IMG/VR virus record: IMGVR_UViG_3300029314_000064
Coordinates: 1 to 64,000 of that record
Direction: 5' to 3' (one strand)
DNA from: a virus
Lineage: Duplodnaviria; Caudoviricetes
DNA length: 64,000 nucleotides
Shown: positions 14,139-63,235 of the stretch, piece by piece
Numbering within the stretch: the stretch's first letter is position 1
Layout of the letters: every line of letters starts with the position of its first letter
Program-made: the position numbers and the translations under genes
The notes under the pieces: model-generated
Database searches by the model: none
What the model was told of the DNA's origin: nothing
The model's input: only the letters and a program-made list of their open reading frames with translations

Positions 14139-14207
14139 AACGAAAATTAAAATTTTCTCCTTTTACCTTTTTAAAATACTTTTCTTTTAATTGTTTTTCA
14201 AACCACC

Positions 14208-14240: not shown

Positions 14241-14298
14241 TTTGTTTTCAATTTAGTATCTCTTCAACTTCTTATCTTTCTAACTTCTAAATGAAATA

Positions 14299-14333: not shown

Positions 14334-14451
14334 CTATGTTGTTTAAAAATATGTAAATCAAATCTAGTCTCCATACTTGGTCCTAGATCAGCCTAAATTG
14401 GTAACCCAAGGCTACCTGTGTTTTTAGCTTTAGGATTAAACTGAACCAAAT

Positions 14452-46494: not shown

Positions 46495-47310
46495 TTCTTT
46501 CTCCTTTGTTGAGAATAAAGAAAAATCCTTCAAGCTAAATAAATTAATATTCTCTTTTGGATTTTTCTCAGTGATTTTCTTTACAGAAGATACCACTATC
46601 GGTTCTGGTTTGCCAGAGAATTCATGATATTCAAAAATATATCCAGTGTTATTTTTTTCATTTTCATTAAGATTTTCACTAAATTGAGTTGGAATGGAAT
46701 TAAGATTAGGAATGAATGGTCTATTCGTTAAAGCACCACCTAATAATGTTGGACCATAAGTTGTTCTTGATCCAAGAGGTATATCATTACCATAAGAATC
46801 TTTAGTAGTTTCTAAGACTTCATGGTCTGCATAATTATCTCTAAATTCAACACTAAAGAATTTATAAATTTCTTCTTTAATGACTTTCTGTCCTTTTTTA
46901 TTCAAACTCCAATTACCAATCATATATACTTGTTCTTTACCTTTTACTTTTCTTGTTTCTTTACGAATAGATTTAAGCCAACCAAAAGCATCCTCTCTGT
47001 TGTGATTCACATCTAAAGGCACGCCAGTTGGAACAACTTTATCATTAAAATTCTTAATAAAACTATCCATCATTTCTTCTGTTACTTTAATCATATATTC
47101 GCCAAACCAAGAAGACCGCATAAAATTTCCGGTTCTTAGCATGTCGAATTCAATACAACATTCTTCAGGCATTTCTTCTTTATTTTTTTCTTTAGATTCA
47201 TCATCTGCGTATTGAGAAAATTTTAATTCTAATTTTTCAGGTAATTGAAAATCAAAACGTGTCTTATTTTGAATATCAGCTTTATCAAATTTAATTGTTG
47301 CAGTAGTCAT
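45775..47310 (-). CDS. Prohead protease-scaffold (Mu gpI-like)
   Basis: LDVNH...AFGWL, YKFFSVEF, LLGGALTNRPFI; coiled-coil C-terminal half. Confidence 0.88.
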   Translation of the reverse strand: MTTATIKFDKADIQNKTRFDFQLPEKLELKFSQYADDESKEKNKEEMPEECCIEFDMLRTGNFMRSSWFGEYMIKVTEEMMDSFIKNFNDKVVPTGVPLDVNHNREDAFGWLKSIRKETRKVKGKEQVYMIGNWSLNKKGQKVIKEEIYKFFSVEFRDNYADHEVLETTKDSYGNDIPLGSRTTYGPTLLGGALTNRPFIPNLNSIPTQFSENLNENEKNNTGYIFEYHEFSGKPEPIVVSSVKKITEKNPKENINLFSLKDFSLFSTKEKEMKFSASQKIISFMETQLSAIPNKESDDYKEALKALNDAKAEFSQASSELDNSAKTFNELSEANKKLSETVKDMSTKVVSFESKMQATEAELSLQRERTRQSEIKSYCTDLSTKGFPKPTIDKVNEILLSDTDNKEVIKFSNEKGEKTGASLRDVISSVLNTIPTDFKVAVPSNDTKVLEFNIGTKKIQDPAKETEMQQFMADNEDALKAGQKKAATRYKNAAKSLDLSSPPADPIPARK

Positions 47311-47324
47311 ATTATTCTCCTATG

Positions 47325-48944
47325 TTATTGTCTTTTTTCTTTTACTGATCTTTCTTTAGGCATTCTTATTTTTCTCTGAGTACCTCTATTTTGATTATTA
47401 GCATCTTGTGCTTCCTTTTTCTTAACAGCAGTAGGAGGCACACCTACCTTACCAAGTGGAGAAGGAATTGGTATTTTTTCAAACATTTCTTCAAATTCTT
47501 CAATCGGAACATCAAGCATTTCAGACAACTTCTTTAGAGAAGGAATAGTCTTAGGCTTATTGCCGTCCCTTATTGCTCCAGCAGACATCATAATAAGTCT
47601 TAAGAAAATTTCCTTCAAAAGAAGTTTCCTATTGAAATCAAGTTTTTCTATTTTAAGATTTGCATCACGAATTTTATTTTTTGGAAAATTATATATCTGT
47701 ATTGGCTTAATAATCTGTTCATCGAACACGCATTCAATATCATTTATCAATGCTTGTTCCGTCATCATAAATACATCAAGTGTATCACCTGCGGATGCAC
47801 CTGAAGCACTGTGACTCGACCCATCAGAAGCTAATCCCAACTTGTCTGGAACAAATATGGCTCTTAACTTTCTAGTGTCGAAGAAGTTAAGCAAATTGAT
47901 AAAGAAGTCTCCTCTACTTTCATCAGAGACATACTTAAAATCCCAAAGATCATGGCTGCCATCTTTTGAAATTTCTTTTGGTAATACAACAATAGAATTT
48001 GAAATTGCTGCCTGACCAATCTTGAGTGCGTGTGTTATGTTATCTACTTTATTTCCATTATGGTCAGTTCTTGTTCCCGCAGGCGCACGCAACAGCATTA
48101 GAGGTTGGCCTGATCTCTCAACATACTTCAACATAAATTGAGTGATCACCATCGACCAGTACCATGGAGGATAAGCATTATTCAATCTTGCATTACCAAA
48201 ATAATTTCCAAACTCCATGTTATGAGAATATATAACTAAATCTTTTGTCTTAACTTGTGGAACAGTTACATTTTCTTTATGTAAGAAATTCTGAGATACG
48301 CCAATAATATTCTGATCTTTATCTAAATGCATGCGTATCGTTTTGGGATGAACAAATTTTATTTTATCATAAACATAAAAAGATTCATTAACTTTAATAC
48401 TCTTTCCTTTTTTGCTTTTGGTCTTAAGATTTAATTCTTTATAATCCCATACCTTTTGACCAATAGCACATCCGTACCGAACGCCCTTTGCTAGGGAAAT
48501 AATGGTATCTCTATAAATATTTTTAATGATTTTAGTATAAACTAATCTTTGTTTCTCATCATCACATTCAATTCTCCAATTTAATCCAGCGGGAGTATAT
48601 TCAATAACACTTAATCCCAAAGCAATAGTTGGATCCTTAGACATTTTTTCTAAAATATCATAAGGAATATTGTTTGGACTATATACTCCTATATTTTGAA
48701 CAATGGTTTGACCAAAATCATCAAGTTGCCCTCCATAACTTAATCCAACCTTAGTATTAGGAGTATCACTTGAGTTTTCTTTTAATTTTTCATTAGAAAA
48801 TTCATTTATTCCAACAAAAGAATTTTCTATTTCTTTGTATGCATTAGGCTTGACTTTATCTTTAATCATTCCCAGAATCGCCTTAGCTTCTTCTGGGAGT
48901 TTTTTTACTTTCTCCTTATCTGCATAAGGGATCCTGTTGACCAT
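47325..48944 (-). CDS. Portal protein (Mu gp29/DUF935-like)
   Basis: Follows TerL; GNYFGNARL..AY..W, YVERSGQP, EQIIKPIQIYNF. Confidence 0.88.
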   Translation of the reverse strand: MVNRIPYADKEKVKKLPEEAKAILGMIKDKVKPNAYKEIENSFVGINEFSNEKLKENSSDTPNTKVGLSYGGQLDDFGQTIVQNIGVYSPNNIPYDILEKMSKDPTIALGLSVIEYTPAGLNWRIECDDEKQRLVYTKIIKNIYRDTIISLAKGVRYGCAIGQKVWDYKELNLKTKSKKGKSIKVNESFYVYDKIKFVHPKTIRMHLDKDQNIIGVSQNFLHKENVTVPQVKTKDLVIYSHNMEFGNYFGNARLNNAYPPWYWSMVITQFMLKYVERSGQPLMLLRAPAGTRTDHNGNKVDNITHALKIGQAAISNSIVVLPKEISKDGSHDLWDFKYVSDESRGDFFINLLNFFDTRKLRAIFVPDKLGLASDGSSHSASGASAGDTLDVFMMTEQALINDIECVFDEQIIKPIQIYNFPKNKIRDANLKIEKLDFNRKLLLKEIFLRLIMMSAGAIRDGNKPKTIPSLKKLSEMLDVPIEEFEEMFEKIPIPSPLGKVGVPPTAVKKKEAQDANNQNRGTQRKIRMPKERSVKEKRQ

Positions 48945-50842
48945 GAGTCACTCCCACTAATATATCCTCCTGGATCAAGCAGTCCTTGAATAGGAGGAGG
49001 TATAGAAATAAAACTTCCGTTTAAATCAGATATTTTCTGATTATACACGACTCCTTCTGTAGAAACAATTAATTCTTTATTTATAGTTGTCAAAGATTTA
49101 CCAGTTGAATAATTAAGTCTTTTTGCTCCAACATAATCTTCAGACAATGGAATCTTAGAAGTAACATCAACAAGACTCATTGTACTTGCTAAAGCCAAAG
49201 ACCACAGTTTATCACCATGGTGGTCTTTGTTTTTATCTGAGTCGTACCTTACACTTCCAGTATCAGAAACTTTCTTTTTAATACTACCTATCTGTCTTTT
49301 TAAATCTTCTTCATCTGGAATAGCTATTAGCATATTCTCAAATCTTATTCTTAGAATCTGTGCAGCCCTTGCTTTCCAATCTAATGTCATATCTACTTGG
49401 TGAACTCTATCTTTAAATTCTTCATGTAGGTCTTCTGCTAAATTCATACCTAAGCCTGTTGCATCAATAGCTAATCTTCTAACAGGCAGATTTTCAAGAA
49501 TCGCTCTTAAAAAAGTTTTCTGTTCATTGAACTTTACTCTATCAAACTGCTTTACGAATCTAACAATCTGAATGGTCGTGGATTCGTTTATTTCTATTTC
49601 CTCAAGTACAGTTAGCTCAGACTTATCTTTTTTGCGTCCTACATCGAATCCGGCGATAAGATTAGGAGTTATCTCACCTGTTCTAATTTTATAAAAGAAT
49701 TTTTCTAGTGAATCACACACAAAGAAATTTAATTTCGTATGTTTAACTTGTATTTCACTCTTAGACTGATTCTCAATGACCACACTGCTCTTCTTAGCAT
49801 CTTGCATTTCGTCAAAACTAAAATCATCTATGTCAGTTGAGAAAACACATTTGTTAATTAAATCTATAGGGAAATAAGAAACATTCTCATCTATGAAAGC
49901 CAACTCATACTCTTGCTGAAATTCATCAAGAGATAAAGTTTCAAAAATAACCTTTAATTTTTCATTTCCAAATCTATTTACTCTATCTATTGTTGATAAC
50001 TTAGATGCATATTTAAATGCATCAAATATATTTAGACATAAATCAGGACAATGCCACCATGGTATAAATTGTCTACTAAATTGTGGAAATTTCTTAATAT
50101 CTGTAAGTACATCATGGAATTTACCTCTAGCACCAAGAGGAGTAGAAGCTATAGTTATTGATCCTGTACCGCGCGTGATAACTGGAACAGCAGCGGTGAA
50201 GATCTTGTCAGGCCAAGTCCAGAATGCAAATTCATCAAAATAAACATCTGTATTGAAGCCCTTACCACGGGGTGGTCTTTGTGCTGTAGATATAACTCTT
50301 GTTATTTGCCCTTTTTGATTCTTAAATACCTGAGACTGTTTATTATCTGTTATTCTTTTCTTTTGATATTCTAAAGGTAAACTCTCATACAATGCTTGAA
50401 CAACAAGAATTTTTTCACTCGCTTCATCCTTGTTGTATGAAATAATAACAGATGAATTTATATCACATAATTGAGATTTACTAAAAGATTCACCTGCTAT
50501 AGAAAAAGAAAAACCTATCTGTCTTGATTTATTGGCTGCTCTGAATTTAGATGTATTATTCATATGAGCAACTTGATAATCATATAATTTAGTTGGCTTA
50601 TCGTATGTCTTTGTTAAGCCTTCTAAGAATCCTGGAACAGTAGCAAGCCAATTCTTAAATTTTTCTTCTCCAAGTATTTCAGGCCCATCTTTCTTAACAA
50701 TAACCAATGGAGAAGGATTATATATTTTTGTTTTCTTTTTGAATTTATGGTTCTTTTTCTTTTTAGTTTTCTTAGGTGGGATATAATTATTCTTAGATAT
50801 CTTCAATGTTTTTAGCAATTCTTTTGCAAAAACAGAAGTCAT
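48905..50842 (-). CDS. terL: Terminase large subunit
   Basis: NKSRQIGFS Walker A, VYFDEFAF Walker B, IASTPLG, AGFDVGRKKD, IDATGLG, HHGDKLWSLALA. Confidence 0.96.
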   Translation of the reverse strand: MTSVFAKELLKTLKISKNNYIPPKKTKKKKNHKFKKKTKIYNPSPLVIVKKDGPEILGEEKFKNWLATVPGFLEGLTKTYDKPTKLYDYQVAHMNNTSKFRAANKSRQIGFSFSIAGESFSKSQLCDINSSVIISYNKDEASEKILVVQALYESLPLEYQKKRITDNKQSQVFKNQKGQITRVISTAQRPPRGKGFNTDVYFDEFAFWTWPDKIFTAAVPVITRGTGSITIASTPLGARGKFHDVLTDIKKFPQFSRQFIPWWHCPDLCLNIFDAFKYASKLSTIDRVNRFGNEKLKVIFETLSLDEFQQEYELAFIDENVSYFPIDLINKCVFSTDIDDFSFDEMQDAKKSSVVIENQSKSEIQVKHTKLNFFVCDSLEKFFYKIRTGEITPNLIAGFDVGRKKDKSELTVLEEIEINESTTIQIVRFVKQFDRVKFNEQKTFLRAILENLPVRRLAIDATGLGMNLAEDLHEEFKDRVHQVDMTLDWKARAAQILRIRFENMLIAIPDEEDLKRQIGSIKKKVSDTGSVRYDSDKNKDHHGDKLWSLALASTMSLVDVTSKIPLSEDYVGAKRLNYSTGKSLTTINKELIVSTEGVVYNQKISDLNGSFISIPPPIQGLLDPGGYISGSDSWSTGSLMQIRRK

Positions 50843-50850
50843 AAATCTCC

Positions 50851-51192
50851 TTATTTTCTGCCTGACCAGAAATACTTAGAAACTTCTCCCTGCTTATTAT
50901 CCATAAAATGATTATATCTTTGTTGCTGGCCATCATTACCTGATAATCCACCTAAATCACTACCTGATTCTTTTTCTTTTGGTTTTTCAAATATTTTCTT
51001 ATTTGAATTTAAATTTTCTTCTAGTTGTTTGGTTAAAACAACAGGAGCATCTTTTCCTTTATTATCTTCTACAGTATTTAAACTTTTTTCTTCATCAATG
51101 AAATCTTTTGGTTGTTCCTGATCTAATGTATTCTTAGATACAGCATCATCAACCATCGTCGACGCCTGATTCTTCTTCCCTCTGCTTATCAT
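50851..51192 (-). CDS. Hypothetical protein
   Basis: Charged, probably disordered ORF between TerS and TerL. Confidence 0.55.
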   Translation of the reverse strand: MISRGKKNQASTMVDDAVSKNTLDQEQPKDFIDEEKSLNTVEDNKGKDAPVVLTKQLEENLNSNKKIFEKPKEKESGSDLGGLSGNDGQQQRYNHFMDNKQGEVSKYFWSGRK

Positions 51193-51871
51193 TTTCTGGC
51201 TCCTTTAATTCTTTAGGTGGTGCAACCACAGGTGGGATAATATCAATTATTTTTTCTTTTTGATTTTCTATAAAACCAACACTGTTCGCAACCTTATATC
51301 TTTCCGACAATTGAGTAATTATCTCTGCACTGATTTTATGATTATGATTAACATTCTTATTCGCAACTTGTGGAGGAGATTCTTCCCTCATTGTTCTATT
51401 TAAATCTAAAGCCATTCTCATCAGTGACTTAACACTTAATGCCTGAAGTGATCCGTCAGCTAATTTATCAATCATTGCTTCATAAACTTGACTATAAATA
51501 AACTCTATCTTGTTTTTTCTTTTCTTATTATCCATATCAACAAAACTACTAATACACTTTTCCAAGTATTCTTCAACCTGAGGCTTCAAAAGCCATTTTC
51601 TACATCTAGCAACAGAAACACCAAGTTTCTCAGCAACTTCATTTATTGGTGTTCCGGCAGCAATATACTTCGCCATAATTCTTTGCTGATGCTTAATAGG
51701 TTTTCTATCTGATTCAAATTTGTTTTTAAGATTTGTTATTTCTACTCGTGTTAATTCTTTATTTCCAGAAACAGGAACAATTTTATCATTCTTTTTATTT
51801 ATCATTCCTAATTCTTCTTCAGTAAAACCATCTAATTTTTTAACTCTTTTCTTCTTTAGTTTCTTTTTCAA
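51149..51871 (-). CDS. Probable terminase small subunit (HTH)
   Basis: HTH INEVAEKLGVSVARCRKWL; first gene of the late operon; TTG start with AGGAG SD. Confidence 0.65.
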   Translation of the reverse strand: MKKKLKKKRVKKLDGFTEEELGMINKKNDKIVPVSGNKELTRVEITNLKNKFESDRKPIKHQQRIMAKYIAAGTPINEVAEKLGVSVARCRKWLLKPQVEEYLEKCISSFVDMDNKKRKNKIEFIYSQVYEAMIDKLADGSLQALSVKSLMRMALDLNRTMREESPPQVANKNVNHNHKISAEIITQLSERYKVANSVGFIENQKEKIIDIIPPVVAPPKELKEPENDKQREEESGVDDG

Positions 51872-51953
51872 TTTCTTATCTCCTGTACCTAATGATTGTT
51901 TTTAGCTAGTGGCATAAGGTAAGGTAACCCAAACCAAACACTTAAAGGAAACA

Positions 51954-52922
51954 ATGAAGAATCTTCTTCTAATAGAAGGAAACGGATTAGCTTATAGAAA
52001 CTTTTTCTCTCATAAAGATCTTTCTATAAAAGAAAATGATAAAACACATTTTACAGGCATGCAATACGGAGTACTCAATAGTCTAGTCACGATGAATAAA
52101 GAATTTAATCCAGATCGCATCATCATTGTGTGGGATGGATCATCACAACGAAGAAAAAAGTTGTACGCTGGATATAAACGTAAGAGAATGGAGAAAAGAG
52201 AAAAAGAAAGAAAAGAACTAGCTAAATTATTGGAACTCTCACCTGATACGCCAGTTCATAATTTCATAAATGAATTTGAAGAAACAAAAAATCTTATTAA
52301 TCTTATAGGCGTGCAACAAATACAAGATATGAAAGAAGAAGCAGATGATGTAATTGGAAGTATCGTACATTCTCTTCCGGATTACAAGATAATGATTGCT
52401 TCAAACGATCATGATTTTAATCAACTGTTGAAAAAAGATATAGTAGAACAATATATTAATATAACGAACAGAAATTATCATAAATCTAAAATTGTAACAT
52501 ATGAATCTTTTTATGAAGAACATAAAATAAATCCAAAATTTTATCCTAATGTTTTAGCAATCGGAGGAGACTCGACAGACGAATACCCTGGAGTAAAAGG
52601 TATAAGCGAAGAAACAGCATTCAGAATAGTTAAGGAATTTGGGCCTAAATTGAGTTCTATAATTGAAAACGCAAAGAAACAAAGAATAAAACCAGATAGG
52701 TACTCAAGATACATTGTAAGAGATGAAGGTATGATTTATATTTTCAAAAAATTATCTAAAATTATACCTGATTTAAAGATTCCACCTGACATAGAAGATA
52801 AAAATGACCACAAATTACTTGCCTTTAAATTAAAGGAATTAAGATTTCATTCTATGCTATTCAAGGATTCATTCAGTGAACTCATAGCTTTAAAGAAAAA
52901 AAATGTAATTTTCCATAAGTAA
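51954..52922 (+). CDS. 5'-3' exonuclease / flap endonuclease (PolA N-terminal domain-like)
   Basis: LLIEGNGLAYR, VWDG, YKRKR, EADDVIG, SNDHDFNQL, GDSTDEYPGVKGI. Confidence 0.93.
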   Translation: MKNLLLIEGNGLAYRNFFSHKDLSIKENDKTHFTGMQYGVLNSLVTMNKEFNPDRIIIVWDGSSQRRKKLYAGYKRKRMEKREKERKELAKLLELSPDTPVHNFINEFEETKNLINLIGVQQIQDMKEEADDVIGSIVHSLPDYKIMIASNDHDFNQLLKKDIVEQYINITNRNYHKSKIVTYESFYEEHKINPKFYPNVLAIGGDSTDEYPGVKGISEETAFRIVKEFGPKLSSIIENAKKQRIKPDRYSRYIVRDEGMIYIFKKLSKIIPDLKIPPDIEDKNDHKLLAFKLKELRFHSMLFKDSFSELIALKKKNVIFHK

Positions 52923-52937
52923 AACAAAGAGGTAGCC

Positions 52938-53135
52938 ATGTCTAGAAAATCAGTTCAAAATATATTCTCAGCAACATGCACTGTGTGTGTGACGAGAAGT
53001 ATTATTAAAACTTCGCTTAATGAGGTTATTAGAGTATCTAAGATAAATAAATGGCTATCATACGAGGATAAAGTCTGCAGAGTCTTAATATTTATTTGTC
53101 CAAGCTGTAAGAAAAAGGGCTACAAGTTTGGATAG
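52938..53135 (+). CDS. Small Zn-ribbon protein
   Basis: CTVC...CPSC; GAGG SD. Confidence 0.55.
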   Translation: MSRKSVQNIFSATCTVCVTRSIIKTSLNEVIRVSKINKWLSYEDKVCRVLIFICPSCKKKGYKFG

Positions 53136-53673
53136 CCATAGATCGAACTCGATTCGCGCATTAACCTCTAGCAAGACACAACACTGGTGTACGCCTTTAC
53201 ACTTGTCTAAGGCGATCCTGGAGGTCCTTGGTGAGATTGATTTAGACCCATGCTCTAACAAGTATTCCCTTATACCTGCACTCACCTATTGGTTTGAAGA
53301 AAACGGAGAACAAACCTTCTCTTTAAGGTGGTCTTTCGCAAAAACCATTTATTGTAATCCGCCTTTTTCTCCAGCACTATTACAAGATAAATTTGTTATG
53401 AAATGTATTAAAGAAAAAAAAGGAAAAGAAATATTAATACTATTGCCTGTTAGAACTGGAACAGGAAGGTGGCAACAGCAGGTTTTTAAGAAGTATGATG
53501 CGATTTGCTACTTCAAAGGTAGGGTTAATTTTGATCTACAAGGAATTAAAACAAAATCTTCTACAGTTCAAACATGTATGGTTTATCTAGGAAATAGGCC
53601 GAAAAGATTTAAAAAAATATTTTCAAAATTTGGTTATACTGAACTAAAAAACAAAAACAAGCCTATTGTGTAA
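53128..53673 (+). CDS. Phage DNA N6-adenine methyltransferase (Dam-like)
   Basis: WCTP, DLDPCS, YCNPPFS catalytic motif, LLPVRTGT, KGRVNF. Confidence 0.88.
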   Translation: MDSHRSNSIRALTSSKTQHWCTPLHLSKAILEVLGEIDLDPCSNKYSLIPALTYWFEENGEQTFSLRWSFAKTIYCNPPFSPALLQDKFVMKCIKEKKGKEILILLPVRTGTGRWQQQVFKKYDAICYFKGRVNFDLQGIKTKSSTVQTCMVYLGNRPKRFKKIFSKFGYTELKNKNKPIV

Positions 53674-53714
53674 ACAAAAGGGGCATAAATGCCTTATGTC
53701 GTAATTTATTCTGA

Positions 53715-54110
53715 ATGGAGACTACAATGAGCGTCATCTATGTATTTGAAACAAAGAATAGAAATCGAGAAAATATTCTTATGGATTCACGCACTGATCC
53801 AAACAGTGAGTTTTATATTATTGATCCAATTGATAATAATAGGTATGGTCCACTCACTGTTAATTTTCTTAAACATTCTCTTTCTTTTCTCACATACGTA
53901 ACGCATGATTTTGAAAATATTGGATTTGGTATTAGGCCGAATATTTTGAATGATTGTTCTGAAATTTTGTTTTTTGATAATCTAAGTAGAGTTACAAACA
54001 AAAACAGAATTATATCATACATTCTTCTTATCAGTGAAGAATATACAAAAAATAGGAATTACAATAAAGTCAAAAAACAACTTAAAGAACTTATTAGTGA
54101 TCTTGAATAG
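53715..54110 (+). CDS. Hypothetical protein
   Basis: ORF filling the gap between genes; no motif recognised. Confidence 0.55.
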   Translation: METTMSVIYVFETKNRNRENILMDSRTDPNSEFYIIDPIDNNRYGPLTVNFLKHSLSFLTYVTHDFENIGFGIRPNILNDCSEILFFDNLSRVTNKNRIISYILLISEEYTKNRNYNKVKKQLKELISDLE

Positions 54111-54173
54111 TCTTGTTGAATAGATTAAGATAATATATTATTTGGGTTAATTTCTTTAACCCAGGAGCAAGAA

Positions 54174-57100
54174 ATGAAAATTTCAAACATAATTAAAATT
54201 ATTATGTTTTTATTCATTCCGGCAATATCTTTAGCACAGCCTTATGGATATACTGGTCCTTCAGGCGGCGGCGCGGGAAGTGGCGCCAATACTGCATTAT
54301 CAAATCTAATATCTACTTCTGTAAATTCAAGTCTTAATCCTGGAGCAGATAGTACTCTATCTTTAGGAACATCTATTCTAAGATGGAATACCTTAAATGC
54401 AGAACAAATAGTCTTAACATCAGATTTTATGGATACTATGACTATTGATGCTGATTCAATGACTTCTGATGTGTCTTTAACAATTACAGGAGCCGGATTA
54501 AATTTAAATTCAGGAAATACAGATCTGACAATTACGACCACAGGTGGATCAGGTATTATATCTCTAAACACGCAGGCCGGTGGTGAGATTAATATCAATA
54601 GTGACACTTTAGGTTTTATAGATAACACAGCAACACAAGTTGATGTTTATGTCGCAAGAAAAACAGGTGGCGGTGCTGGTATTCCTCTTGTCATCAGCGG
54701 AAGCGGCGCAACCAATGGAGACACAGATGCAAATGGCGGCAATATAACTATTGCATCTGGAAGATCAACTGGTACTGGTACATCAGATATTTTGTTCAAC
54801 ACTCCAACACCGCAAGGTGGAACAAATACAACTGATAATATCCCTAGTACAAAATTCAGAGTTAATGGAACAGGAAAAGCCATATTTGGATCCGGAGCAG
54901 CAACCGCCTTTTGGGATCCAACCAATACTACTTTTCAAGTAGGTGGCACCGATTACAGTTTTGGTCCAGCAACAACAATTCTTCCTGGAAATATTTTATC
55001 TTATGATGTTGCAGGAAATTATGCAACACTAGGATTAACAGGAGAAATTGTTCAAATTCAAGGAAACGGATCACTCACTGGTTATGCTGAAATAACATCA
55101 CTAGATGATTTTAGAGTTAATACCACTGACGGTATGGTTGTCGGTGTCAATGGAACTGTAAGTCTTCCTTCAATAAGAACCAACGACACTAATTCTGGTA
55201 TTTGGACTCCAGCATCTGATCAATTAGCTATTGCAGTCGGCGGGAGCGAGCGTGCTCACTTTCGCCTTGCTAATACGGGGGCCAGCACTGGGCGCGTCGA
55301 GTTTCAGCTTGGGACAATGAGTGCGGTGGTCGGTGAGTACGGGCTCTACACCAAGGCGACAGGCCTCAACAGTGCCACAGATCAATATATGAACTTCTTT
55401 GAGGGTACCGGCGCTGGTGCCAACACAGGTGGTCAGTATGTCCTCGCGGCGTCACTTGCTGCCGGATACACGGGTGCGGGTAGGTCGTCGGCAATGCACG
55501 CCGTCAACGCGTCTGCGACCACCGCCACGGCTGTGAGTGCCTGGGGGGACATCCAAGGAACTCTTGGCGCTTACAGTGAATCCAACGGTGCGTACACGGG
55601 CCATGCATTCGCGGTGGTTGGAAATGCACTTGGTGGTGCGGTAACCAGCACGAACGTCGGGGTGTTTGGGAGGTCATCATCTACATTTGCCAACACCCAT
55701 GTTGGCGTGGCTGGCGTTGCGCTGTCGAGTGTTGGGGGAGGCGTTCAGGTCGGAGGCTTCTTTGGGATTGGTGACTACGGGGTGTCAGCCCCGACGTGGG
55801 CCAGTGGTGCTGTTGTTGCTGACGTTGGAGCAGGAGCCGGGATCCCCATCTTCCGTGGGAGAAATGCAGGGGTTGACCGTTTCCGCGTGATGGAGACTGG
55901 TGTTGTTCAGATATACAGCACCGGGGCTATTGGCGCCCCCGTGCTCACTTTCGGGCCCAACGCGGGTCCGGCAGACTCCACAACTGGTATTTGGCGCCCT
56001 GGTTCAAACGTGCTTTCATTTGTGAACTCAGGCGCGAACTCCCTGCACCTCGCCTCCGACAATAAAGTTGGCATCGGAACAGCCAATTCCCAGAGCCGGT
56101 TGGGTGTCGCGGGCAGCGTGGCAATCGGGGCTACGTACGCGGACACCGTGGGCTCTCCGACGAATGGATTGGCCGTTCAGGGTGACGTCGGCATCGGTGT
56201 GATCACACCAACAGCGCAGTTGCACTTGTCAGGGGTAACTGGATCGTCCGGCTATCACGTATTCTGGACCGGCGCACTAGGCTCCGACAATAACTCCCGA
56301 GCCGGATTGCGGTACACGCTTTCCACGGCAGGCACAGGCGCAAGTGCGCACCGTCTTGGTATACAATCAGCTATGAGCGGTACGTCTACCGACGCTTCAG
56401 CGTTCATCTACGGGATTGTTTCCGATCTTTCGGTCACTGGCGTAGCCAACGATATGCGCCTCGCGACGGGGACTGCCGGACCTCTGGGAAATGTGGGTTC
56501 CATGTCGTACGCCTACGGAACCACGGTGGGCTTGAACGTAGGCAGGGCGTCCGTTGCGGTCAACGGCAACGTCAACGTGGCGGTGCTGGCGAAGTCCACG
56601 ACGGCAAAGAACTCTGCGTCCAACATCGGCGTGTTGTCTGCTGCGCTCAACACAGGCTCAACCCCTGTTCATGTGGCGGGGTATTTCGGGCTTGTCGCCA
56701 CCACACCGACGCTGACGTCGGCAGCCCTGATCGCTGACAACGGCGCCACAACGTCGAAAATTTTTGAAGCACGTGACAACGGAACAGCAGTGTTTTCAAT
56801 TAATGATGCGGGTGTGGTTGTTATGACAGGAGACAATAGTGCTGGCGTAGGCACCTTGCGTATCCGTCCTTCTGATGAAGATACTCAAATTGTTTTATGT
56901 GAAGCCAGCAACAATGCAACAACTGAAGTATGTTCTACCTTACAACATCAAAACATTAGTGCATCAGCATCAACAATGATATTTGCTTCTAATATGTATC
57001 TTGATTCTGCTGGCGCAGTTCAGCGCAATAATACTGCATTTGGATCTGCATATATACAATCACGCGCTTCATCTACTCTAGGATCAAATACGACAGTATT

Positions 57101-57938
57101 AGGTCTGTATAATACCAGCGGAACTTTAGCTACATATTCAGATTATAGCGTTACAGGGACAACAGCCGGAACTTTTACATTTGGAACCTCCGGAACCACC
57201 ACTGTAGATTTCCGTGGTCCTATTCTTAATGGAGGCGCCACAACATGCAATGGTCTGTGGGCAGGAACTTTATGTATTAATGAAGATTTGGTTATGCAAT
57301 ATTCATCAACTGATCTTGTATATAGAATGCAGAGCACTTCGGCGTCAGGAATAGCTTATGTTCAAGTTCTTAACAACAGCGGAACTGCTGCCGGTAGTTT
57401 CGGATATGGAAACACTGGCTATACAGATGCAGATTTCGCAGGGCATTTTTGGTATCTAACCAATGTTGCATCTACCCCTCTACGCCTAGGGAATACACAG
57501 GATGTTGGTGTTACAAGTCCTGTTGTGAAAATTACAGACAACACGACAGTATCAGGAACCCTAGAAGGAACAAATCATGTCGTAGTGTATGGTGGCGGAA
57601 CTGTTGCGTACCCATCAACACAAACCATAACATGTGCTGATAATGCAGGTGGCACTAATCAAACTGCAAACCTCGACCCACAAGCACATACCATCACCAT
57701 CCTGAATAATGACGCCACAGGATGCGACATAACATTACAAGAAACAAGCGCGATTATTGGTGCAGTCATAATTGTATGTATTGATCCTGCATCTACTGCA
57801 ACCAATGTTAATTTCGCAGACGTGGCAAATGTATTTAACGGAAACGCACCTGCTTTATCTCAGGGAGATTGCTTCACTGCTCGCTACTTTGATGCAGCCA
57901 ACGATCTATGGGTACAGACCGGAATCAGTGATAATTGA
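54174..57938 (+). CDS. Signal-peptide-bearing fibre/adhesin-like protein A (1254 aa)
   Basis: Sec-type signal ending AISLA|QPYGY; G/T/A/S-rich beta repeats including KVGIGT...GDVGIG fibre motifs; C-terminal domain shared with the next gene. Confidence 0.75.
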   Translation: MKISNIIKIIMFLFIPAISLAQPYGYTGPSGGGAGSGANTALSNLISTSVNSSLNPGADSTLSLGTSILRWNTLNAEQIVLTSDFMDTMTIDADSMTSDVSLTITGAGLNLNSGNTDLTITTTGGSGIISLNTQAGGEININSDTLGFIDNTATQVDVYVARKTGGGAGIPLVISGSGATNGDTDANGGNITIASGRSTGTGTSDILFNTPTPQGGTNTTDNIPSTKFRVNGTGKAIFGSGAATAFWDPTNTTFQVGGTDYSFGPATTILPGNILSYDVAGNYATLGLTGEIVQIQGNGSLTGYAEITSLDDFRVNTTDGMVVGVNGTVSLPSIRTNDTNSGIWTPASDQLAIAVGGSERAHFRLANTGASTGRVEFQLGTMSAVVGEYGLYTKATGLNSATDQYMNFFEGTGAGANTGGQYVLAASLAAGYTGAGRSSAMHAVNASATTATAVSAWGDIQGTLGAYSESNGAYTGHAFAVVGNALGGAVTSTNVGVFGRSSSTFANTHVGVAGVALSSVGGGVQVGGFFGIGDYGVSAPTWASGAVVADVGAGAGIPIFRGRNAGVDRFRVMETGVVQIYSTGAIGAPVLTFGPNAGPADSTTGIWRPGSNVLSFVNSGANSLHLASDNKVGIGTANSQSRLGVAGSVAIGATYADTVGSPTNGLAVQGDVGIGVITPTAQLHLSGVTGSSGYHVFWTGALGSDNNSRAGLRYTLSTAGTGASAHRLGIQSAMSGTSTDASAFIYGIVSDLSVTGVANDMRLATGTAGPLGNVGSMSYAYGTTVGLNVGRASVAVNGNVNVAVLAKSTTAKNSASNIGVLSAALNTGSTPVHVAGYFGLVATTPTLTSAALIADNGATTSKIFEARDNGTAVFSINDAGVVVMTGDNSAGVGTLRIRPSDEDTQIVLCEASNNATTEVCSTLQHQNISASASTMIFASNMYLDSAGAVQRNNTAFGSAYIQSRASSTLGSNTTVLGLYNTSGTLATYSDYSVTGTTAGTFTFGTSGTTTVDFRGPILNGGATTCNGLWAGTLCINEDLVMQYSSTDLVYRMQSTSASGIAYVQVLNNSGTAAGSFGYGNTGYTDADFAGHFWYLTNVASTPLRLGNTQDVGVTSPVVKITDNTTVSGTLEGTNHVVVYGGGTVAYPSTQTITCADNAGGTNQTANLDPQAHTITILNNDATGCDITLQETSAIIGAVIIVCIDPASTATNVNFADVANVFNGNAPALSQGDCFTARYFDAANDLWVQTGISDN

Positions 57939-57981
57939 GATCTAAGATCTAGAAGTTAATTATTCAACCAAAAGGAGAAGT

Positions 57982-60672
57982 ATGAAAAATATAATTTCGT
58001 TGTTGGTGTTTTTATTGGCTCCTATTATTTCTATCGCACAACCTTATGGTTACACTCCAAGAACAGGATCAGGATCATCTACTTTTACAGGCGGAACTGT
58101 AACATCTACAATTGTATCAACTGATGGTCTTGGTGGTCCAGCGTGTGATTACTCTGCCGGGACAAATGAAAATTTAACATTCTGTATGGCAGGAACAGGT
58201 GCTGTTGATTTTCCTAAATTAGTCAATACAGCAGGAACATCAATTGATATATTTGGAGAAGCTCTAAAAAACACAGATACTCAAATCTGTAATGGTGTTG
58301 CAGGTACAGGTGGAGAATTTTGTATTAATGATGTTATGATGGTTAGTAGTGCAGGAAATACATATTTGAGAATATGGCCATCAGCAACAGGCACAGGGCA
58401 AATTCAGATTAATTATAATGGAACAGCAAGTAATTCAGCTATAAATATTTACGATGTAACAGGAGCAGTAGCATTAAGAGGAAGTTTTGGTTACGGTGGT
58501 TCAACGTTCTCTGATGCTGATTTTCAAAGTAGACTTTATATGGTTTCTTACTCTTCATCTCAAATTGCCTTTATGCATGACGCTGATCTAGGCGTTTCTA
58601 CTATAGGGTGGAACTGGCTAGATAATGCTGCTGCCACAGCAGTTTCTATTATGAATCTAGATGGAGATGGAACACTTTCTGTTTTGAATAATATTGACAC
58701 TTATGGAACAACAGGACCGAACACCTTTAGAGGCCCTGTTGTTATGACCGGAGATAATGCTTCAGGAACAGGAACACTACGTATTCGTCCAACAGATGAA
58801 GATACTCAATTAGTTCTTTGCGAAGCAAGTAATAATTCAGCACCAGAAACATGTAGTTCTGTCCAGCATTATAATGCTAGTTCAGTATTTTCATCATTAA
58901 TTTTTGGAACAAACATTTATCTTAATTCCGCAGGTGCTCCACAACGCAATAATACGTCATTTGGATCTGGATACATCCAAACAGCAGCAAGTACGACTCT
59001 CGGTTCAAATGGTGTATGGTTTGGAGCTTATAATACAACTGGAACAATAGCAGGATATGTCAATTTTTTAGCAACTGGAGCAGCTACAACTACATTTAAA
59101 ATTGGTGATTCTGGTGTGACAACTACTGACATTCGCGGACCTATTATCAATGGTGGAGTTGCTGCGTGTGATGGAAGTTCTACTACAGGTGGCTTATGTT
59201 TTGTTGATGACACTATGATGATTTCAAGTGCGAATGCTGTTTATTATGCTCGAGCCTCTGGAACAACAGGATTAGCAGCTTCAGTTTATGGAGCTACTAC
59301 GCTCGCAAACAATCTACAGGTTGGATGGTTTGGTAGCTCATCTGATGCTGATTATGCTTCATCTCTTGGTATATTAGCGGTTGGGGGTGTCGGTTTACAG
59401 TTTGTTCATATTTCTGATATTGCTGCTGGAGTCGCTGCATGGGCATTTAAAGACAACGCTGTTGCTTCAGGCGTAACACTTCTTGAAATTGAAGGAGATG
59501 GTTCTTTAGATATCAGAGGCAGCATTAAAAATGATGGAAGTTCTACTTGTGATGGCCTTATTGCAGGAAGTTTATGTATTTCTGATTTATTAACAATTCA
59601 TACTGGATCAAGTCCATCAAGCGCAGTTGGAATTATAGTACAAAATACATCAAATACAGGAAGTGCAATATTTCAAGCATACACAGACGGTGACGCTTTT
59701 GCATTTCAGTTAGCATATGGAAATGGTGCAGTCGCTGATGCAGATTTTGCAGTCAAAACATATTTATTATCATCAACTGAACAGCAATTCTCAAGAACAG
59801 ATGATGTTGCAGCGGGAACTATTGGATGGAGATGGGTTGATGGAACTTCAACATCTGCTACGTTAGCAGGTAATACTCTGATGGGTTTGTATGGAGATGG
59901 AACCCTAGGATTACGTAATGCAATACGAAATGATAGCAGTGTGACATGTAATGGAATTGGGGCCGGAAGTTTATGTGTTACAGAAGACAATACAATAATT
60001 TTCGGTACTGGCACAACAGAAACACTGCATGTAGGTTCTACTGCTGCAACATCTAATACTCAAATTTGGGAATATGCCCAAGGGACAAATTCTCAAGCAA
60101 CGACTCTATTTGTCAGTGGTACCATGGCTGCGGGGACAGTTATCGGAGCCGTAGGATTTTACGGTAGCGGTGTAGCAGATGCAGATTATGCAGATAATAT
60201 AACATTGTTTTCTGTTGGAAAAACTATTGGTCTTTTAGAGAATTCACAGAAGACCGCAACACAAAAAGTTCTAAAAGTAATGGATAATATTGTAGGCACA
60301 GGAGAAGAACATCTTGCAGTCTATGGTGCGGGAACTGTTGCATTTCCTCAAACTCAAACCGTAACATGTGCTGATAATGCAGGAGGAACCAACCAAGCCG
60401 CAAACTTAGATCCTCAAGCTGTCAATATTACAATCACAAATAATGACGCCACAGGGTGCGATATCACAATGCAGGAAACCAGTGCAATTATAGGTGCGAT
60501 AATTGTAATATGTGTTGACCCTGCTTCTACAGCTACAAATGTTAATTTTGCAGATGTAGCAAATGTTTTCGATGGTGCTGCCCCCGCTTTATCTCAGGGC
60601 GACTGCATAACAGTACGTTATTTTGATGCAGCAAATGATCTATGGCTTCAAACTGGAATAAGCAACAACTAA
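57982..60672 (+). CDS. Signal-peptide-bearing fibre/adhesin-like protein B (896 aa)
   Basis: Signal ending IISIA|QPYGY; four Cys-loop/DAD(F/Y) repeats; shared C-terminal domain. Confidence 0.75.
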   Translation: MKNIISLLVFLLAPIISIAQPYGYTPRTGSGSSTFTGGTVTSTIVSTDGLGGPACDYSAGTNENLTFCMAGTGAVDFPKLVNTAGTSIDIFGEALKNTDTQICNGVAGTGGEFCINDVMMVSSAGNTYLRIWPSATGTGQIQINYNGTASNSAINIYDVTGAVALRGSFGYGGSTFSDADFQSRLYMVSYSSSQIAFMHDADLGVSTIGWNWLDNAAATAVSIMNLDGDGTLSVLNNIDTYGTTGPNTFRGPVVMTGDNASGTGTLRIRPTDEDTQLVLCEASNNSAPETCSSVQHYNASSVFSSLIFGTNIYLNSAGAPQRNNTSFGSGYIQTAASTTLGSNGVWFGAYNTTGTIAGYVNFLATGAATTTFKIGDSGVTTTDIRGPIINGGVAACDGSSTTGGLCFVDDTMMISSANAVYYARASGTTGLAASVYGATTLANNLQVGWFGSSSDADYASSLGILAVGGVGLQFVHISDIAAGVAAWAFKDNAVASGVTLLEIEGDGSLDIRGSIKNDGSSTCDGLIAGSLCISDLLTIHTGSSPSSAVGIIVQNTSNTGSAIFQAYTDGDAFAFQLAYGNGAVADADFAVKTYLLSSTEQQFSRTDDVAAGTIGWRWVDGTSTSATLAGNTLMGLYGDGTLGLRNAIRNDSSVTCNGIGAGSLCVTEDNTIIFGTGTTETLHVGSTAATSNTQIWEYAQGTNSQATTLFVSGTMAAGTVIGAVGFYGSGVADADYADNITLFSVGKTIGLLENSQKTATQKVLKVMDNIVGTGEEHLAVYGAGTVAFPQTQTVTCADNAGGTNQAANLDPQAVNITITNNDATGCDITMQETSAIIGAIIVICVDPASTATNVNFADVANVFDGAAPALSQGDCITVRYFDAANDLWLQTGISNN

Positions 60673-60686
60673 TCACAGGAGGAATC

Positions 60687-61964
60687 TTGATTAAGATATT
60701 AAAGCTATTTATGATTTCGTTTTTTCTTTCAATAATATCTGATTATCATACAGTCATTAATCAAGCTTCTGCTCAAACAAAAATCATAATTGTAACAGGC
60801 CAGTCATTATCTGCGGGAGCAGCAACAGTCTCTGCAATTACAACAACACAATCCAGAAATCATAAGAAAGTAACAGGATTAGCTTATGATTCCACAGGCG
60901 CTCTTAGTCCTCCATATATTGTAAGAACTCCGACATTTGCAGCATACCCATGGACTTCACTTATAGAAACAACTGAAGAAAGTCCTAGAACATGCATGGC
61001 AAATCAATATTATACAAATTCTGGTTTTGAAGCATATCTTGCAACAGGATCTAAAGGTGGCGGATCATATACAGAAATTAAAAAAGGAACAGAAGCTTTT
61101 CTGTATTTAGATAGGTCTATAGAAAGTTTTACATCAAGAAATAGTTTTGATGGAGTCACAGGAAAACCACAATGTGTTGGCGCTCTATTGATGCATGGAG
61201 AAAGTGATCATCAATTATCAACAACGCGAGAACAGTATACGGCAAATCTAGTTGAATTACAGAATGATATCCAACAAAAATGTCTTAAAACAGGAAGCAT
61301 TACTGAAGGAACAACTGTTCCACTGTTTGTAGGGCAATTTTCTTCTTGGACCGCAAATGTTTTAGCAAATCATTCAACAACAAGCCCTATTCCACTCGCA
61401 GTTCAGGATGCAGCCAGAAATCCTACAAATTTTGGTAAGATTATTATTGTATTCCCTCAATATGGTTTCACGCATGTCGTTGATGGAGTTCACTTAACAA
61501 ATACTTCTTCATGCGCAGCAGGTACAATCGCAGGAAGAGCAATGGCATCAGGAACATCTTATCATCCTCTTCAACCACATCTTACTGAATCTATTACAAG
61601 AGTCAATAATGTTATTACTGTTCCTATGTATGTTCCAACTTGTCCTATGGCTTTAGACACAACAATTATCACAGGTGTTTCTTCAACACATCGCGGTTTT
61701 GAATACACGTGTGGATCATCTCCTCCATCTATTTCCTCTATTGATTGTACTTCTATTGCTTGTTCAAACAATATTGGATATTGTACTATTACTCTTTCAG
61801 GTTCTCCTAATGCCTCATGTCAAACTGATGATTTTATTGGATATGCCATCACAGGTGTGAATGGAAATAGTGGAGGGCCTACAAGTGGTCCTCGTGGAAA
61901 TGTTGTAGACAGTTCAGTTCCAGTCAATAGATTGGTTCACTTTAAACTTTCAGTCCCACAATAA
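60687..61964 (+). CDS. Secreted SGNH-type carbohydrate esterase (sialate O-acetylesterase/CE6-like)
   Basis: TGQSLS, MHGESD, DGVHLT catalytic blocks. TTG start at 60687 after AGGAGG; hydrophobic N-terminus with ASA|Q site. Confidence 0.8.
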   Translation: MIKILKLFMISFFLSIISDYHTVINQASAQTKIIIVTGQSLSAGAATVSAITTTQSRNHKKVTGLAYDSTGALSPPYIVRTPTFAAYPWTSLIETTEESPRTCMANQYYTNSGFEAYLATGSKGGGSYTEIKKGTEAFLYLDRSIESFTSRNSFDGVTGKPQCVGALLMHGESDHQLSTTREQYTANLVELQNDIQQKCLKTGSITEGTTVPLFVGQFSSWTANVLANHSTTSPIPLAVQDAARNPTNFGKIIIVFPQYGFTHVVDGVHLTNTSSCAAGTIAGRAMASGTSYHPLQPHLTESITRVNNVITVPMYVPTCPMALDTTIITGVSSTHRGFEYTCGSSPPSISSIDCTSIACSNNIGYCTITLSGSPNASCQTDDFIGYAITGVNGNSGGPTSGPRGNVVDSSVPVNRLVHFKLSVPQ

Positions 61965-61977
61965 CCCGGAGCTAAAC

Positions 61978-62373
61978 ATGAACAGATCAGTCCTTCTATC
62001 CCTCGTCCTCGGAGCAGCCACAGGAACAGCTTTAACTGTTGGGTCGGGTGTTATTGCCCAAGTTGCCCGTACGGACGTCAGAGAGCCTGTCACGCTTGGT
62101 ACACTTGATGGCTTCTGCGTTGTAGTAAATAAAGAACAGTCCGATGCAGGACAAGGTCTTACATTTAGTGATTTCACTGGTTTAGAATTATCTGAAGTCA
62201 ATATTAGAGTCCAAAGCAGAATTCCTGATGAGGAACCTGCTGTCTGTAGGGTAGGCGGAATTAAATTAAGAGGAACTGCACGTACGGAAATGGCGAAATG
62301 GGCTAGAGATTATATTGTTCCTCTAGCTAGAAATGAATGTAAAATTGGTGCAAGATCTGACGCAGGACTATAA
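61978..62373 (+). CDS. Small exported or membrane-anchored protein
   Basis: Hydrophobic N-terminus (VIA|Q possible cleavage); GGAG SD. Confidence 0.6.
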   Translation: MNRSVLLSLVLGAATGTALTVGSGVIAQVARTDVREPVTLGTLDGFCVVVNKEQSDAGQGLTFSDFTGLELSEVNIRVQSRIPDEEPAVCRVGGIKLRGTARTEMAKWARDYIVPLARNECKIGARSDAGL

Positions 62374-62396
62374 TCGTATTAAATTTATGAAATATC

Positions 62397-62437
62397 AAAA
62401 CCCCTGTGTTCTGTATTTTTTCAGGCACAGGGGTTTT
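62397..62437 (+). terminator. Intrinsic terminator closing the secreted-protein cassette
   Basis: AAAACCCCTGTG / CACAGGGGTTTT inverted repeat followed by GAGTTTTT. Confidence 0.8.
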
Positions 62438-62484: not shown

Positions 62485-62859
62485 ATGAATAAAAAATCTG
62501 TTCTAATTATAGAAGATGATCAGAAATTAAGATTTTTATTGAGAGATGTTTTAAGTTTTTCTGGTTATCATGTATTCTTGGCTTCTGATGGATATGAAGC
62601 ACTAGATATTCTTCAAACTGTGAAGCCTGATATTATATTCACTGATTTATCTATGCCTAAAGTTGATGGTGTTGAATTAATTAAAGTCATCAAGCATAGA
62701 TTTAAAAATGACAATATACCTGTCGTTGCTATCTCTGGAGCAAAAGAATCTCTTATGATAGATGCATTACAGGCAGGTGCAGATATGCTTATCAAAAAGC
62801 CATTCAAGTTGTCCATCATCCGTCTTGCTTTAGATTCACTACAAAAAACAAAGGAATAA
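62485..62859 (+). CDS. Stand-alone response regulator receiver (CheY-like)
   Basis: VLIIEDD, FTDLSMPKVDG (phospho-Asp), AISG, KKPF all intact. Confidence 0.92.
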   Translation: MNKKSVLIIEDDQKLRFLLRDVLSFSGYHVFLASDGYEALDILQTVKPDIIFTDLSMPKVDGVELIKVIKHRFKNDNIPVVAISGAKESLMIDALQAGADMLIKKPFKLSIIRLALDSLQKTKE

Positions 62860-62860
62860 A

Positions 62861-63235
62861 ATGGCTGCATCAAAAGGAATCAAATGGGATGAGCAACCTC
62901 TTGGCCAGATGAGCGATAAAGATCTAGCCAAGAGGTTGCAGGTTTCTCCTGAAGCGGTTCGTATGGCTAGGGTATCTAGGGGCATTCAAAGTTGTGTAAA
63001 TAAATCCAAATACATTGATTGGTCAACACAACCACTCGGCCTTATGCCTGACGCAGAAATCGCCAAAAAAATTGGAGTCACTATAAGTTCCGTGCGCTCT
63101 GCGCGCGCTACAAGAAGCATACCTAATTATAGAGAATACTTCCATATTATGTCTGATTTTAGGCTTAAAAAATTAGAAAAAGGAGTTGACGCAATTCTTA
63201 AATATCTAAACATCCATCCAGAAAAGGATGCTTAA
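62861..63235 (+). CDS. Tandem-HTH DNA-binding protein
   Basis: Two repeats of I.W..QPLG...D..A..(L/I).V....VR.AR..R.I. Confidence 0.7.
   Translation: MAASKGIKWDEQPLGQMSDKDLAKRLQVSPEAVRMARVSRGIQSCVNKSKYIDWSTQPLGLMPDAEIAKKIGVTISSVRSARATRSIPNYREYFHIMSDFRLKKLEKGVDAILKYLNIHPEKDA

Follow-up and report, generated by a model that had tools for sequence, protein, structure and literature searches.

The first 64 kb (the window; 64,000 nt) of the 146,652-bp virus record IMGVR_UViG_3300029314_000064 was analysed. The record (G000) is a phage genome rated complete by CheckV, with 35.8% GC and five tRNA genes. A reading made from the sequence alone had singled out an operon of four genes, here named A to D, which encodes two large fibre-like proteins, an esterase and a small protein, each with a putative signal peptide. 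The genes and their terminator are given below (aa, amino acids).

54174-57938, + strand: gene A (P0001), 1254 aa
57982-60672, + strand: gene B (P0002), 896 aa
60687 (TTG start, more likely) or 60642 (ATG start) to 61964, + strand: gene C (P0003), 425 or 440 aa
61978-62373, + strand: gene D (P0004), 131 aa
62395-62438, + strand: intrinsic terminator with a U-rich tail, free energy (dG) -28.6 kcal/mol, z -7.4 against shuffles

The genes are separated by 43 nt (A-B), 14 nt (B-C) and 13 nt (C-D), and Shine-Dalgarno sequences precede each of them: AGGAG-type before A and B, AGGAGG before the TTG start of C, and GGAG before D. The 425-aa form of C that begins at the TTG is also the form on record (P0175). 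The terminator hairpin is followed by UUUUGAGUUUUU and was missed by a consensus terminator scan because its loop is long. Genes A to D are one transcription unit, on the strand opposite the terminase-to-tail operon and outside the structural module. The sequence-only reading had described four consecutive genes on the + strand, closed by one terminator and opposed to the structural operon, and this arrangement was found.

Putative export signals of the four products

All four N-termini displayed a basic n-region, a hydrophobic h-region, small-x-small residues at -3/-1 and Gln at +1, which is the layout of a Sec/signal peptidase I substrate. In A, residues 1-21 (MKISNIIKIIMFLFIPAISLA before Q) end in ...PAISLA and continue as QPYGY; in B, residues 1-20 (MKNIISLLVFLLAPIISIA before Q) end in ...PIISIA, again followed by QPYGY. 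The N-terminus of C, counted from the TTG start, reads IKILKLFMISFFLSIISDYHTVINQASA before Q and ends in ...NQASA, then QTKII, and that of D reads MNRSVLLSLVLGAATGTALTVGSGVIA before Q and ends in ...SGVIA, then QVARTDVRE. The four endings SLA, SIA, ASA and VIA before Gln were thus exactly those first reported. The h-region of D is long (~24 aa) and rich in Gly and Ala, and its N-terminus may be a signal anchor instead of a cleaved signal.

Signal peptides were called by a crude self-made heuristic combined with conservation across relatives. Of the genome's 138 open reading frames (ORFs) with a length of at least 120 aa, the heuristic flagged 24, and a small residue before Q at the site was present in 6; against this background, four adjacent signal-like genes are far beyond chance (roughly 1e-3 to 1e-6). 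We then considered the family of 171 proteins that was gathered by searches with B and with an alignment of its C-terminal domain. Signal-peptide-like N-termini were present in 154 of the 171 members (~90%), compared with the 24 of 138 control ORFs, and small-before-Q sites of the A-Q type in 71; many of the remaining members begin with V or L, as if truncated. In the relatives P0006, P0016, P0019 and P0164, N-terminal residues were exchanged (LL>FF, L>C and A>I in P0016; I>M in P0006) with the hydrophobic character and the cleavage motif kept, and SIA or SLA before Q was unchanged. The homologs of the fibre core and of D in a second phage record (G001) both retained signal-peptide-like N-termini. 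Conservation among homologs, which had been proposed as a check on export, held among close relatives, in a phage unrelated to this one and in about nine-tenths of the family. Judged by this pattern, export of A to D is highly likely, with cleavage probably before Gln.

Fibre paralogs, esterase and partner protein

Protein A comprises the signal-like N-terminus, a Cys-free extension of ~850 aa rich in Gly, Thr, Ser and Ala, and a 375-aa core at the C-terminus; the core consists of a neck module, a beta region, one Cys-loop module and a C-terminal beta-sandwich. This 375-aa segment of A can be aligned, over the full length of both, with the mature part of the ~400-aa proteins P0165, P0007, P0163, P0166, P0168 and P0170, in which the core comes straight after the signal peptide. 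Protein B has ~220 aa ahead of the core and repeats the Cys-loop module, and the C-terminal beta-sandwiches of A and B are 85% identical. The consensus of the neck module is …TGDN..GTGTLRIRPSDEDTQ.VLCEASNN… and that of the Cys-loop module …RGPI.NGG..TC.G..G.LC…. The neck was also found with other C-terminal tips (P0005, P0009, P0012, P0013 and others), which is the usual fibre logic of a constant proximal part with swappable tips. No N-terminal virion-attachment domain was recognised in A or B by PHROG or Pfam profiles; signal-peptide-like N-termini stand there instead. That A and B might be decoys copied from tail proteins of the same phage was rejected, the modules having no second copy in the 147-kb genome.

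By sequence, nothing was matched by A, B or D in Pfam, PHROGs or the PDB (phmmer), and NCBIfam gave no usable match. The AlphaFold2 (AF2) models were all-beta, with a mean predicted local distance difference test (pLDDT) of 79 for the core and 85.7 for the C-terminal domain. Foldseek searches with the core and the C-terminal domain returned phage spikes and fibres exclusively (PDB, E 1e-5 to 1e-3), including Acinetobacter phage Solidus gp83 (E 1e-5), the Pa223 capsid spike, the K1F endosialidase and the Mu fibre. For the C-terminal domain, the best fold match was to the N-terminal fragments 1-250 and 1-335 of CBA120 TSP4 (7rfv, E 1.9e-4, template modelling (TM) score 0.55); the Pa223 capsid spike and T4 gp9/gp10 were matched as well, at sequence identities of 7-16%. 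There were 189 matches at E <= 1e-3 in BFVD, some of them named tail fibre and gp9/gp10. The Atlas neighbours of the C-terminal domain were all-viral clusters, with a TM-score of 0.66 to the T4_gp9_10_N cluster; its top three rows by features comprised one 'Putative phage tail fibre C-terminal domain-containing protein' and two entries named 'hypothetical protein'. The TM-scores were low because the proteins are multi-domain. The models support the fibre-likeness of A and B at the level of the fold, with modest scores, and together with the cysteine pairs described below they agree with the description of the two large genes in the sequence-only reading.

The C-terminal domain and a block within A have the following positions.

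57585-57935 (in A) and 60319-60669 (in B), + strand: C-terminal all-beta domain, ~105 aa; B ends ...WLQTGISNN
55230-56789, + strand: GC-rich in-frame block in A, GC 0.60, GC at third codon positions (GC3) 0.62 against 0.19 in the flanks

An exhaustive search with B against 1.84 billion representatives yielded 136 proteins, most of which matched residues 790-896 only. The consensus of the domain is …TC.DA.GCDITM.ET…VNFADTAGV.ELAGAF..GQ.D…Y..DRWVE..RSNN at the C-terminus. No Pfam or PHROGs family covers it, and to judge by its sequence relatives it is a rare family in its own right. The domain is usually C-terminal and elsewhere N-terminal, internal or tandem; a few family members carry beta-helix or depolymerase domains. 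Members of the close clade were found in none of 185,579 species genomes, and a metagenome scan yielded only a 1.7-kb fragment.

The cysteines of A (eight, in four close pairs) all lie within its last 350 aa, and B contains 16 cysteines in eight close pairs; C has 10 and D has 3. Of 135 domain sequences, 127 have Cys826, with either Cys796 (59 sequences) or Cys820 (73 sequences) as partner, and only four sequences have both. Cys844 and Cys875 occurred together 29 times and singly three times in the alignment of the C-terminal domain. Such paired and covarying cysteines fit putative disulfide partners. Disulfides are formed in the periplasm and not in the cytoplasm, so this pattern is consistent with the signal peptides.

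C matched the Pfam family PF03629 (SASA) with 29.2 bits against a cut-off of 24.8, its residues 46-301 covering positions 2-224 of the 226 in the profile. The motifs GQS (53-55), HGESD (185-189) and DGVH (281-284; 440-aa numbering) were kept in 112-117 of 120 homologs, and the GQS, xGExD and DxxH blocks have catalytic roles in SGNH/SASA enzymes. C is predicted from these motifs to be an intact SASA-type carbohydrate (O-acetyl) esterase; its C-terminal part is Cys-rich. C also aligned with phrog_4201 'tail fiber protein' (8.8e-39), over profile positions 261-654 of 676 only. As judged from this alignment, the virion-attachment part (phrog_4201 positions 1-260) is missing from C, and the predicted signal peptide is in its place. 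A lipobox-like N-terminus was present in 60 of the 120 C homologs. Those bearing organism names belong to Labilithrix or Myxococcales, and further relatives occur in metagenome-assembled genomes (MAGs) of Polyangiaceae. The subfamily to which C belongs appears, from these N-termini, to be largely exported in cells too.

The homolog of D in G001, a 49-kb, 62%-GC phage record that encodes a helicase, Erf, a primase and a tail protein, shares 43% identity with D (E 4e-29) and has the same design, its N-terminus ending in ...IFA before QVAKSDVRE. It is the next gene after the fibre-core gene P0165. The fibre core and D are the sole genes that G000 (36% GC) and G001 (62% GC) have in common, and because the two phages are otherwise unrelated, the pair is indicative of a mobile cassette. 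D probably helps the fibre core or serves it as docking partner; no other relatives of it were detected in Pfam, PHROG or Atlas searches.

Family members were located in several kinds of genomic slot. In G001 and in a further phage sequence (L073), the member follows unannotated genes of tail-tip size (243/287/1267 aa and 268/288/1344 aa, respectively), as judged by gene order alone. In the 66%-GC record IMGVR_UViG_3300037504_000146 (L072), P0160, which has a signal-peptide-like N-terminus and the C-terminal domain, lies at 3815-5110 between the terminase large subunit (TerL) and portal genes, both confirmed by tblastn. The terminase of this phage is 45-48% identical to the terminases of Limnohabitans, Acidovorax and Bordetella BPP-1 phages. 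In the Deltaproteobacteria MAG JAHFST010000001.1 (L004), a member at 11615-16213 is flanked by hemB/tonB-like genes on one side and trpFBA/leuS on the other, and phage genes are absent from the vicinity. This protein (P0140, 1526 aa) has the C-terminal domain twice in tandem at its end and is preceded by a 2486-aa ORF; relatives of its middle part occur in several Patescibacteria MAGs. A 2.7-Mb genome of the same phylum (G058) has three dispersed genes with the domain, in ORFs of 363-685 aa (L025, L027 and L028); within this phylum, copies of the domain were limited to 3 of 93 genomes.

In P0016 (206 aa) and P0019 (92 aa), two proteins from other assemblies, the N-terminal ~50-60 residues of B, which comprise the putative signal peptide and QPYGYT…, were fused in frame to the C-terminal part of C. 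These B::C fusions could be natural deletions that cost B most of its length and C its catalytic part, or assembly artefacts. The relatives P0006, P0164 and P0174 come from 85.7-kb and 148-kb contigs.

The GC3 of the operon (0.17-0.27) is the same as in neighbouring genes, save for the block at 55230-56789, and the raised regional GC is mostly due to Gly/Ala/Thr-rich coding. An import of the whole operon from a foreign source in recent times was ruled out by this phage-like GC3. The block is 94% identical in a relative (L032), and P0164, on the 148-kb contig, is a gene A with another middle block at that place. Judged by its composition, the block was acquired recently through a module exchange with a GC-rich source.

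Proposed site of action of the cassette

We favour, at about even chances, a reading in which the cassette acts on the host envelope as a moron-like accessory set that binds and deacetylates a surface glycan. Each product would be made with a Sec-type signal peptide and cross the inner membrane unfolded; after the probable cut before Gln, the products would fold in the oxidising periplasm, where the paired cysteines would form disulfides. A and B, with their fibre/spike-type beta domains, would bind a surface or periplasmic glycan, C would strip O-acetyl groups from that glycan, and D would aid the folding or docking of the fibres or anchor them. With the receptor masked or destroyed, superinfection would be excluded and fewer progeny would be lost on debris. 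It is likely that the A-D set is not a cytoplasmically assembled virion part, and an accessory role, with the proteins presumably absent from virions, leans to the probable side; masking or destruction of the receptor in particular is a tentative proposal, the target glycan being a presumed one.

The sequence-only reading had left two interpretations side by side, appendages matured in the periplasm and added to virions at lysis, or a kit that remodels the host surface. Their shared premise of export was strengthened by the N-termini, the cysteine covariation and the esterase homologs with a lipobox. Of the two, the envelope kit fits better because the operon lies outside the structural module, members occupy varied slots including a non-prophage site, and B::C variants occur. 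The specific roles, O-deacetylation of the receptor and decoys, are inferred. The sequence-only reading had not picked up D as conserved partner of the fibre core, the C-terminal domain as a separate family, or the phage-like codon usage of the operon outside the GC-rich block in A. Of the marks of morons or accessory genes, an own terminator, mobility between unrelated phages, variable sites and B::C deletion variants were found. A location in the tail module was found, from gene order, in G001 and L073, and neither in this phage nor in L072. The variable slots, the mobility and the deletions point to accessory cargo.

Phage genes of this general kind are known. T5 Llp reportedly brings about superinfection exclusion at the receptor FhuA, and lambda lom lies directly after the tail-tip gene J, which we take to be the slot of the homologs in G001 and L073. 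Like T5 Llp, lambda Lom and Bor, the cassette would consist of phage genes with signal peptides that act on the host envelope and are dispensable for virion building; Llp, Lom and Bor are small lipoproteins or outer-membrane proteins with no fibre kinship, whereas the present set contains fibre-type proteins of 900-1250 aa and an enzyme. A second parallel is cellular. The MAT fibres of Bdellovibrio bacteriovorus possess a signal peptide, a conserved beta-rich N-terminal domain of ~130 aa, a fibre-like body and swappable tips; they are encoded by the cell, and an S74 chaperone-protease is present in 13 of 21 members (Caulton et al., 2024; PMC10769870). A and B share with them a signal peptide (in A and B a predicted one), a conserved proximal module, the fibre-like body and the swappable tips, and MATs act outside the cytoplasm of a diderm; in contrast, A and B are phage-borne, have other conserved modules and are accompanied by the esterase and D. 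Neither a Pfam S74 domain nor a sequence match to MATs was found in A and B, and the fold match to Bd2133 was weak (8ond, E 0.31). The logic of the cassette may be called analogous to that of T5 Llp, and the design of its proteins to that of the Bdellovibrio MATs (PMC10769870).

For C, the closest counterparts are the SGNH/SASA tail-fibre esterases of phages (phrog_4201) and NanS-p/gp84 of phi24B, which belong to the same family and have intact motifs. In the Stx phage phi24B, gp84 (NanS-p family) is bound to the capsid through an N-terminal DUF1737 (bioRxiv 10.64898/2026.04.10.717836). The phrog_4201 enzymes and gp84 thus carry an N-terminal virion-binding part, whereas C carries the predicted signal peptide there.

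Several points weigh against action on the envelope. The fold matches of A and B are all to virion fibres and spikes, and the homologs in G001 and L073 occupy the usual tail-fibre slot. Modular swapping, as seen in the GC-rich block and the variants, is typical of receptor-binding proteins. The operon, with phage-like codon usage in most of its length, is an old resident with one recent module swap and not a fresh moron. No outer-membrane export route is evident for fibres of 900-1250 aa in the periplasm, and the case for signal peptides is one of sequence pattern and conservation. Should the B::C fusions be assembly artefacts, they would no longer count as deletions. Among the tail proteins of the structural operon, no receptor-binding domain was recognisable, the only signal of that type being sub-threshold galactose-binding-like matches in a 1347-aa protein.

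In the main alternative, A and B, with C, are receptor-binding fibres that mature in the periplasm: after export they would acquire disulfides and form trimers assisted by D, and they would dock on finished virions only at lysis; we consider this improbable. The restriction of fold matches to fibres and spikes and the position of homologs after the 1267-aa and 1344-aa proteins in G001 and L073 both speak for it. The gp10-like domains that CBA120 TSP4 has in its N-terminal part, docking modules of branched spikes, are similar to the C-terminal domain, and the near-identical C-termini of A and B could serve as a shared docking site; D is placed like a fibre chaperone, and the structural operon has no other recognisable receptor-binding protein. 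The likeness to the gp10-like domains of branched tailspikes (CBA120 TSP4, T4 gp9/gp10) is, however, a moderate one of fold. Those domains are N-terminal docking modules of cytoplasmic virion proteins, whereas the domain of A and B is usually C-terminal, has disulfide-type cysteines and occurs in proteins with predicted signal peptides. To our knowledge, no tailed phage assembles virion parts outside the cytoplasm, and we found no extracytoplasmic virion assembly in the literature on tailed phages; nor did we find a tail fibre with a signal peptide described there, which is weak evidence of absence. In addition, members are found between TerL and portal and at a non-prophage chromosomal site, the operon is apart from the late operon and beside early-type genes, and B::C deletion variants occur in other assemblies.

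Rather unlikely is a benefit to the host, with secreted adhesins and a glycan esterase that would assist attachment or nutrient access of infected or lysogenic cells. Prophage SASA esterases are known, and a role of these in host fitness has been proposed (PMC10462455; bioRxiv 10.64898/2026.04.10.717836); the cell-encoded, signal-peptide-bearing, phage-like fibres of Bdellovibrio act as adhesins (PMC10769870), and the present family also occurs in cellular genomes. However, neither an integrase nor a lysogeny module was seen in the window, the phi24B esterase is a capsid decoration and not a free enzyme (bioRxiv 10.64898/2026.04.10.717836), and the same lack of an evident route across the outer membrane applies.

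That A and B are ordinary tail fibres assembled in the cytoplasm is very unlikely. The fibre-like folds and the Gly/Thr/Ser-rich composition are typical of fibres, and the hydrophobic N-termini would then be, for example, assembly or membrane-contact segments and not working signal peptides. This does not agree with the n/h/c layout with small-x-small before Q in four of four adjacent genes, nor with its retention in ~90% of a diverged family that includes cellular members. Cysteine pairing and covariation fit disulfides, which the cytoplasm does not form, and a lipobox is often present in the esterase homologs.

Cargo of a type IX secretion system in a Bacteroidota host, with the C-terminal domain as sorting domain, was rejected for lack of a match to a sorting domain and because of Shine-Dalgarno use, and is scarcely credible: the frequent A-Q sites (71/171; a 'Q-rule' of Gln at +1 after the cleavage site is generally associated with Bacteroidota), a conserved domain at the extreme C-terminus and the low GC of the phage would suit it, but NCBIfam TIGR04183/TIGR04131 were absent from the C-terminus (the sole match, E 0.49, fell on B residues 133-192), Pfam Por_Secre_tail was not matched, the domain is also N-terminal, internal or tandem, and a Shine-Dalgarno core was present at about half of crude ORF starts against a background of 6%, unlike what is usual in Bacteroidota.

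Fibre-type phage proteins built for export and disulfides are unusual. Proteins of the tail-fibre type are taken to fold in the cytoplasm as virion parts, and here fibre folds are combined with putative signal peptides and disulfide-type cysteines, in a coherent operon and in a wider family that spans several phage lineages and a few bacteria. If action on the envelope is true, the cassette would represent a new class of phage accessory function, with recycled receptor-binding parts and a receptor-modifying enzyme. If the proteins end in virions, the understanding of tailed-phage assembly would be altered, with maturation outside the cytoplasm recurring in several unrelated lineages. The C-terminal domain, the neck module and D, all missing from Pfam and PHROGs, could enter annotation resources, and signal peptides on fibre-like genes are worth checking when receptor-binding proteins are predicted.

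Surroundings of the operon and host

Upstream of the operon, the + strand encodes an exonuclease, a DNA methyltransferase and a small ORF; a receiver-domain-like gene lies downstream. A further feature precedes gene A.

54142-54164, + strand: 9-bp hairpin, dG -10.6 kcal/mol, z -2.8, immediately 5' of the Shine-Dalgarno site of A

This hairpin is possibly a regulatory element or a weak stop that separates the operon from the early-type genes upstream. A promoter-like TTGTTG-N17-TATTAT at 54113-54141 was spotted by eye. Right after the operon terminator, the interval 62485-63235 encodes a 124-aa protein (phrog_731 and relatives) and a second 124-aa protein with weak helix-turn-helix-family matches.

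The - strand of the window encodes the terminase small and large subunits, portal, major head protein, a phrog_290 'minor tail protein', a 3093-aa protein, three large unannotated proteins and a glycosyltransferase cluster. The 3093-aa ORF (26930-36211, - strand) is in the tape-measure position and is very long for a siphovirus-type tail. The relative L032 is 95.5% identical to the window at 47227-56182, with an identical layout. A megablast search against cultured phages found no near relatives of this phage, and its best TerL match had 37% identity.

The Shine-Dalgarno cores at ORF starts suggest that the host translates via such sites, which argues against a Bacteroidota host, given the initiation habits of that phylum. 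Two GT9 heptosyltransferase-family genes in the phage (Pfam) fit a diderm, lipopolysaccharide-bearing host, and the host is probably a diderm. The phage tRNAs decode A-ending codons, which suggests a host of higher GC. The esterase homologs hint weakly at a myxobacterial host. A myxobacterial origin of the fibre family was rejected: the C-terminal domain occurred in none of 301 sampled genomes of the Labilithrix phylum, where the esterase alone has relatives.

Directly after the tail genes, window positions 6427-15624 (- strand) contain the two GT9 genes, at least two GT2 genes and one radical SAM/SPASM gene (Pfam); a methyltransferase-domain match in this interval was sub-threshold (21.4 bits against a cut-off of 26.3). 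Heptosylation of autotransporter adhesins is also among the activities of GT9-like enzymes, and, as pure speculation, the Ser/Thr-rich A and B, if exported, might be candidate substrates for glycosylation by the enzymes of this cluster. Elsewhere in G000, at ~81.6-86.4 kb, three ORFs have lipobox-like N-termini (…LNGC, …FGC and …IGC); from these motifs, they are further candidate exported proteins, possibly with spanin or exclusion functions.

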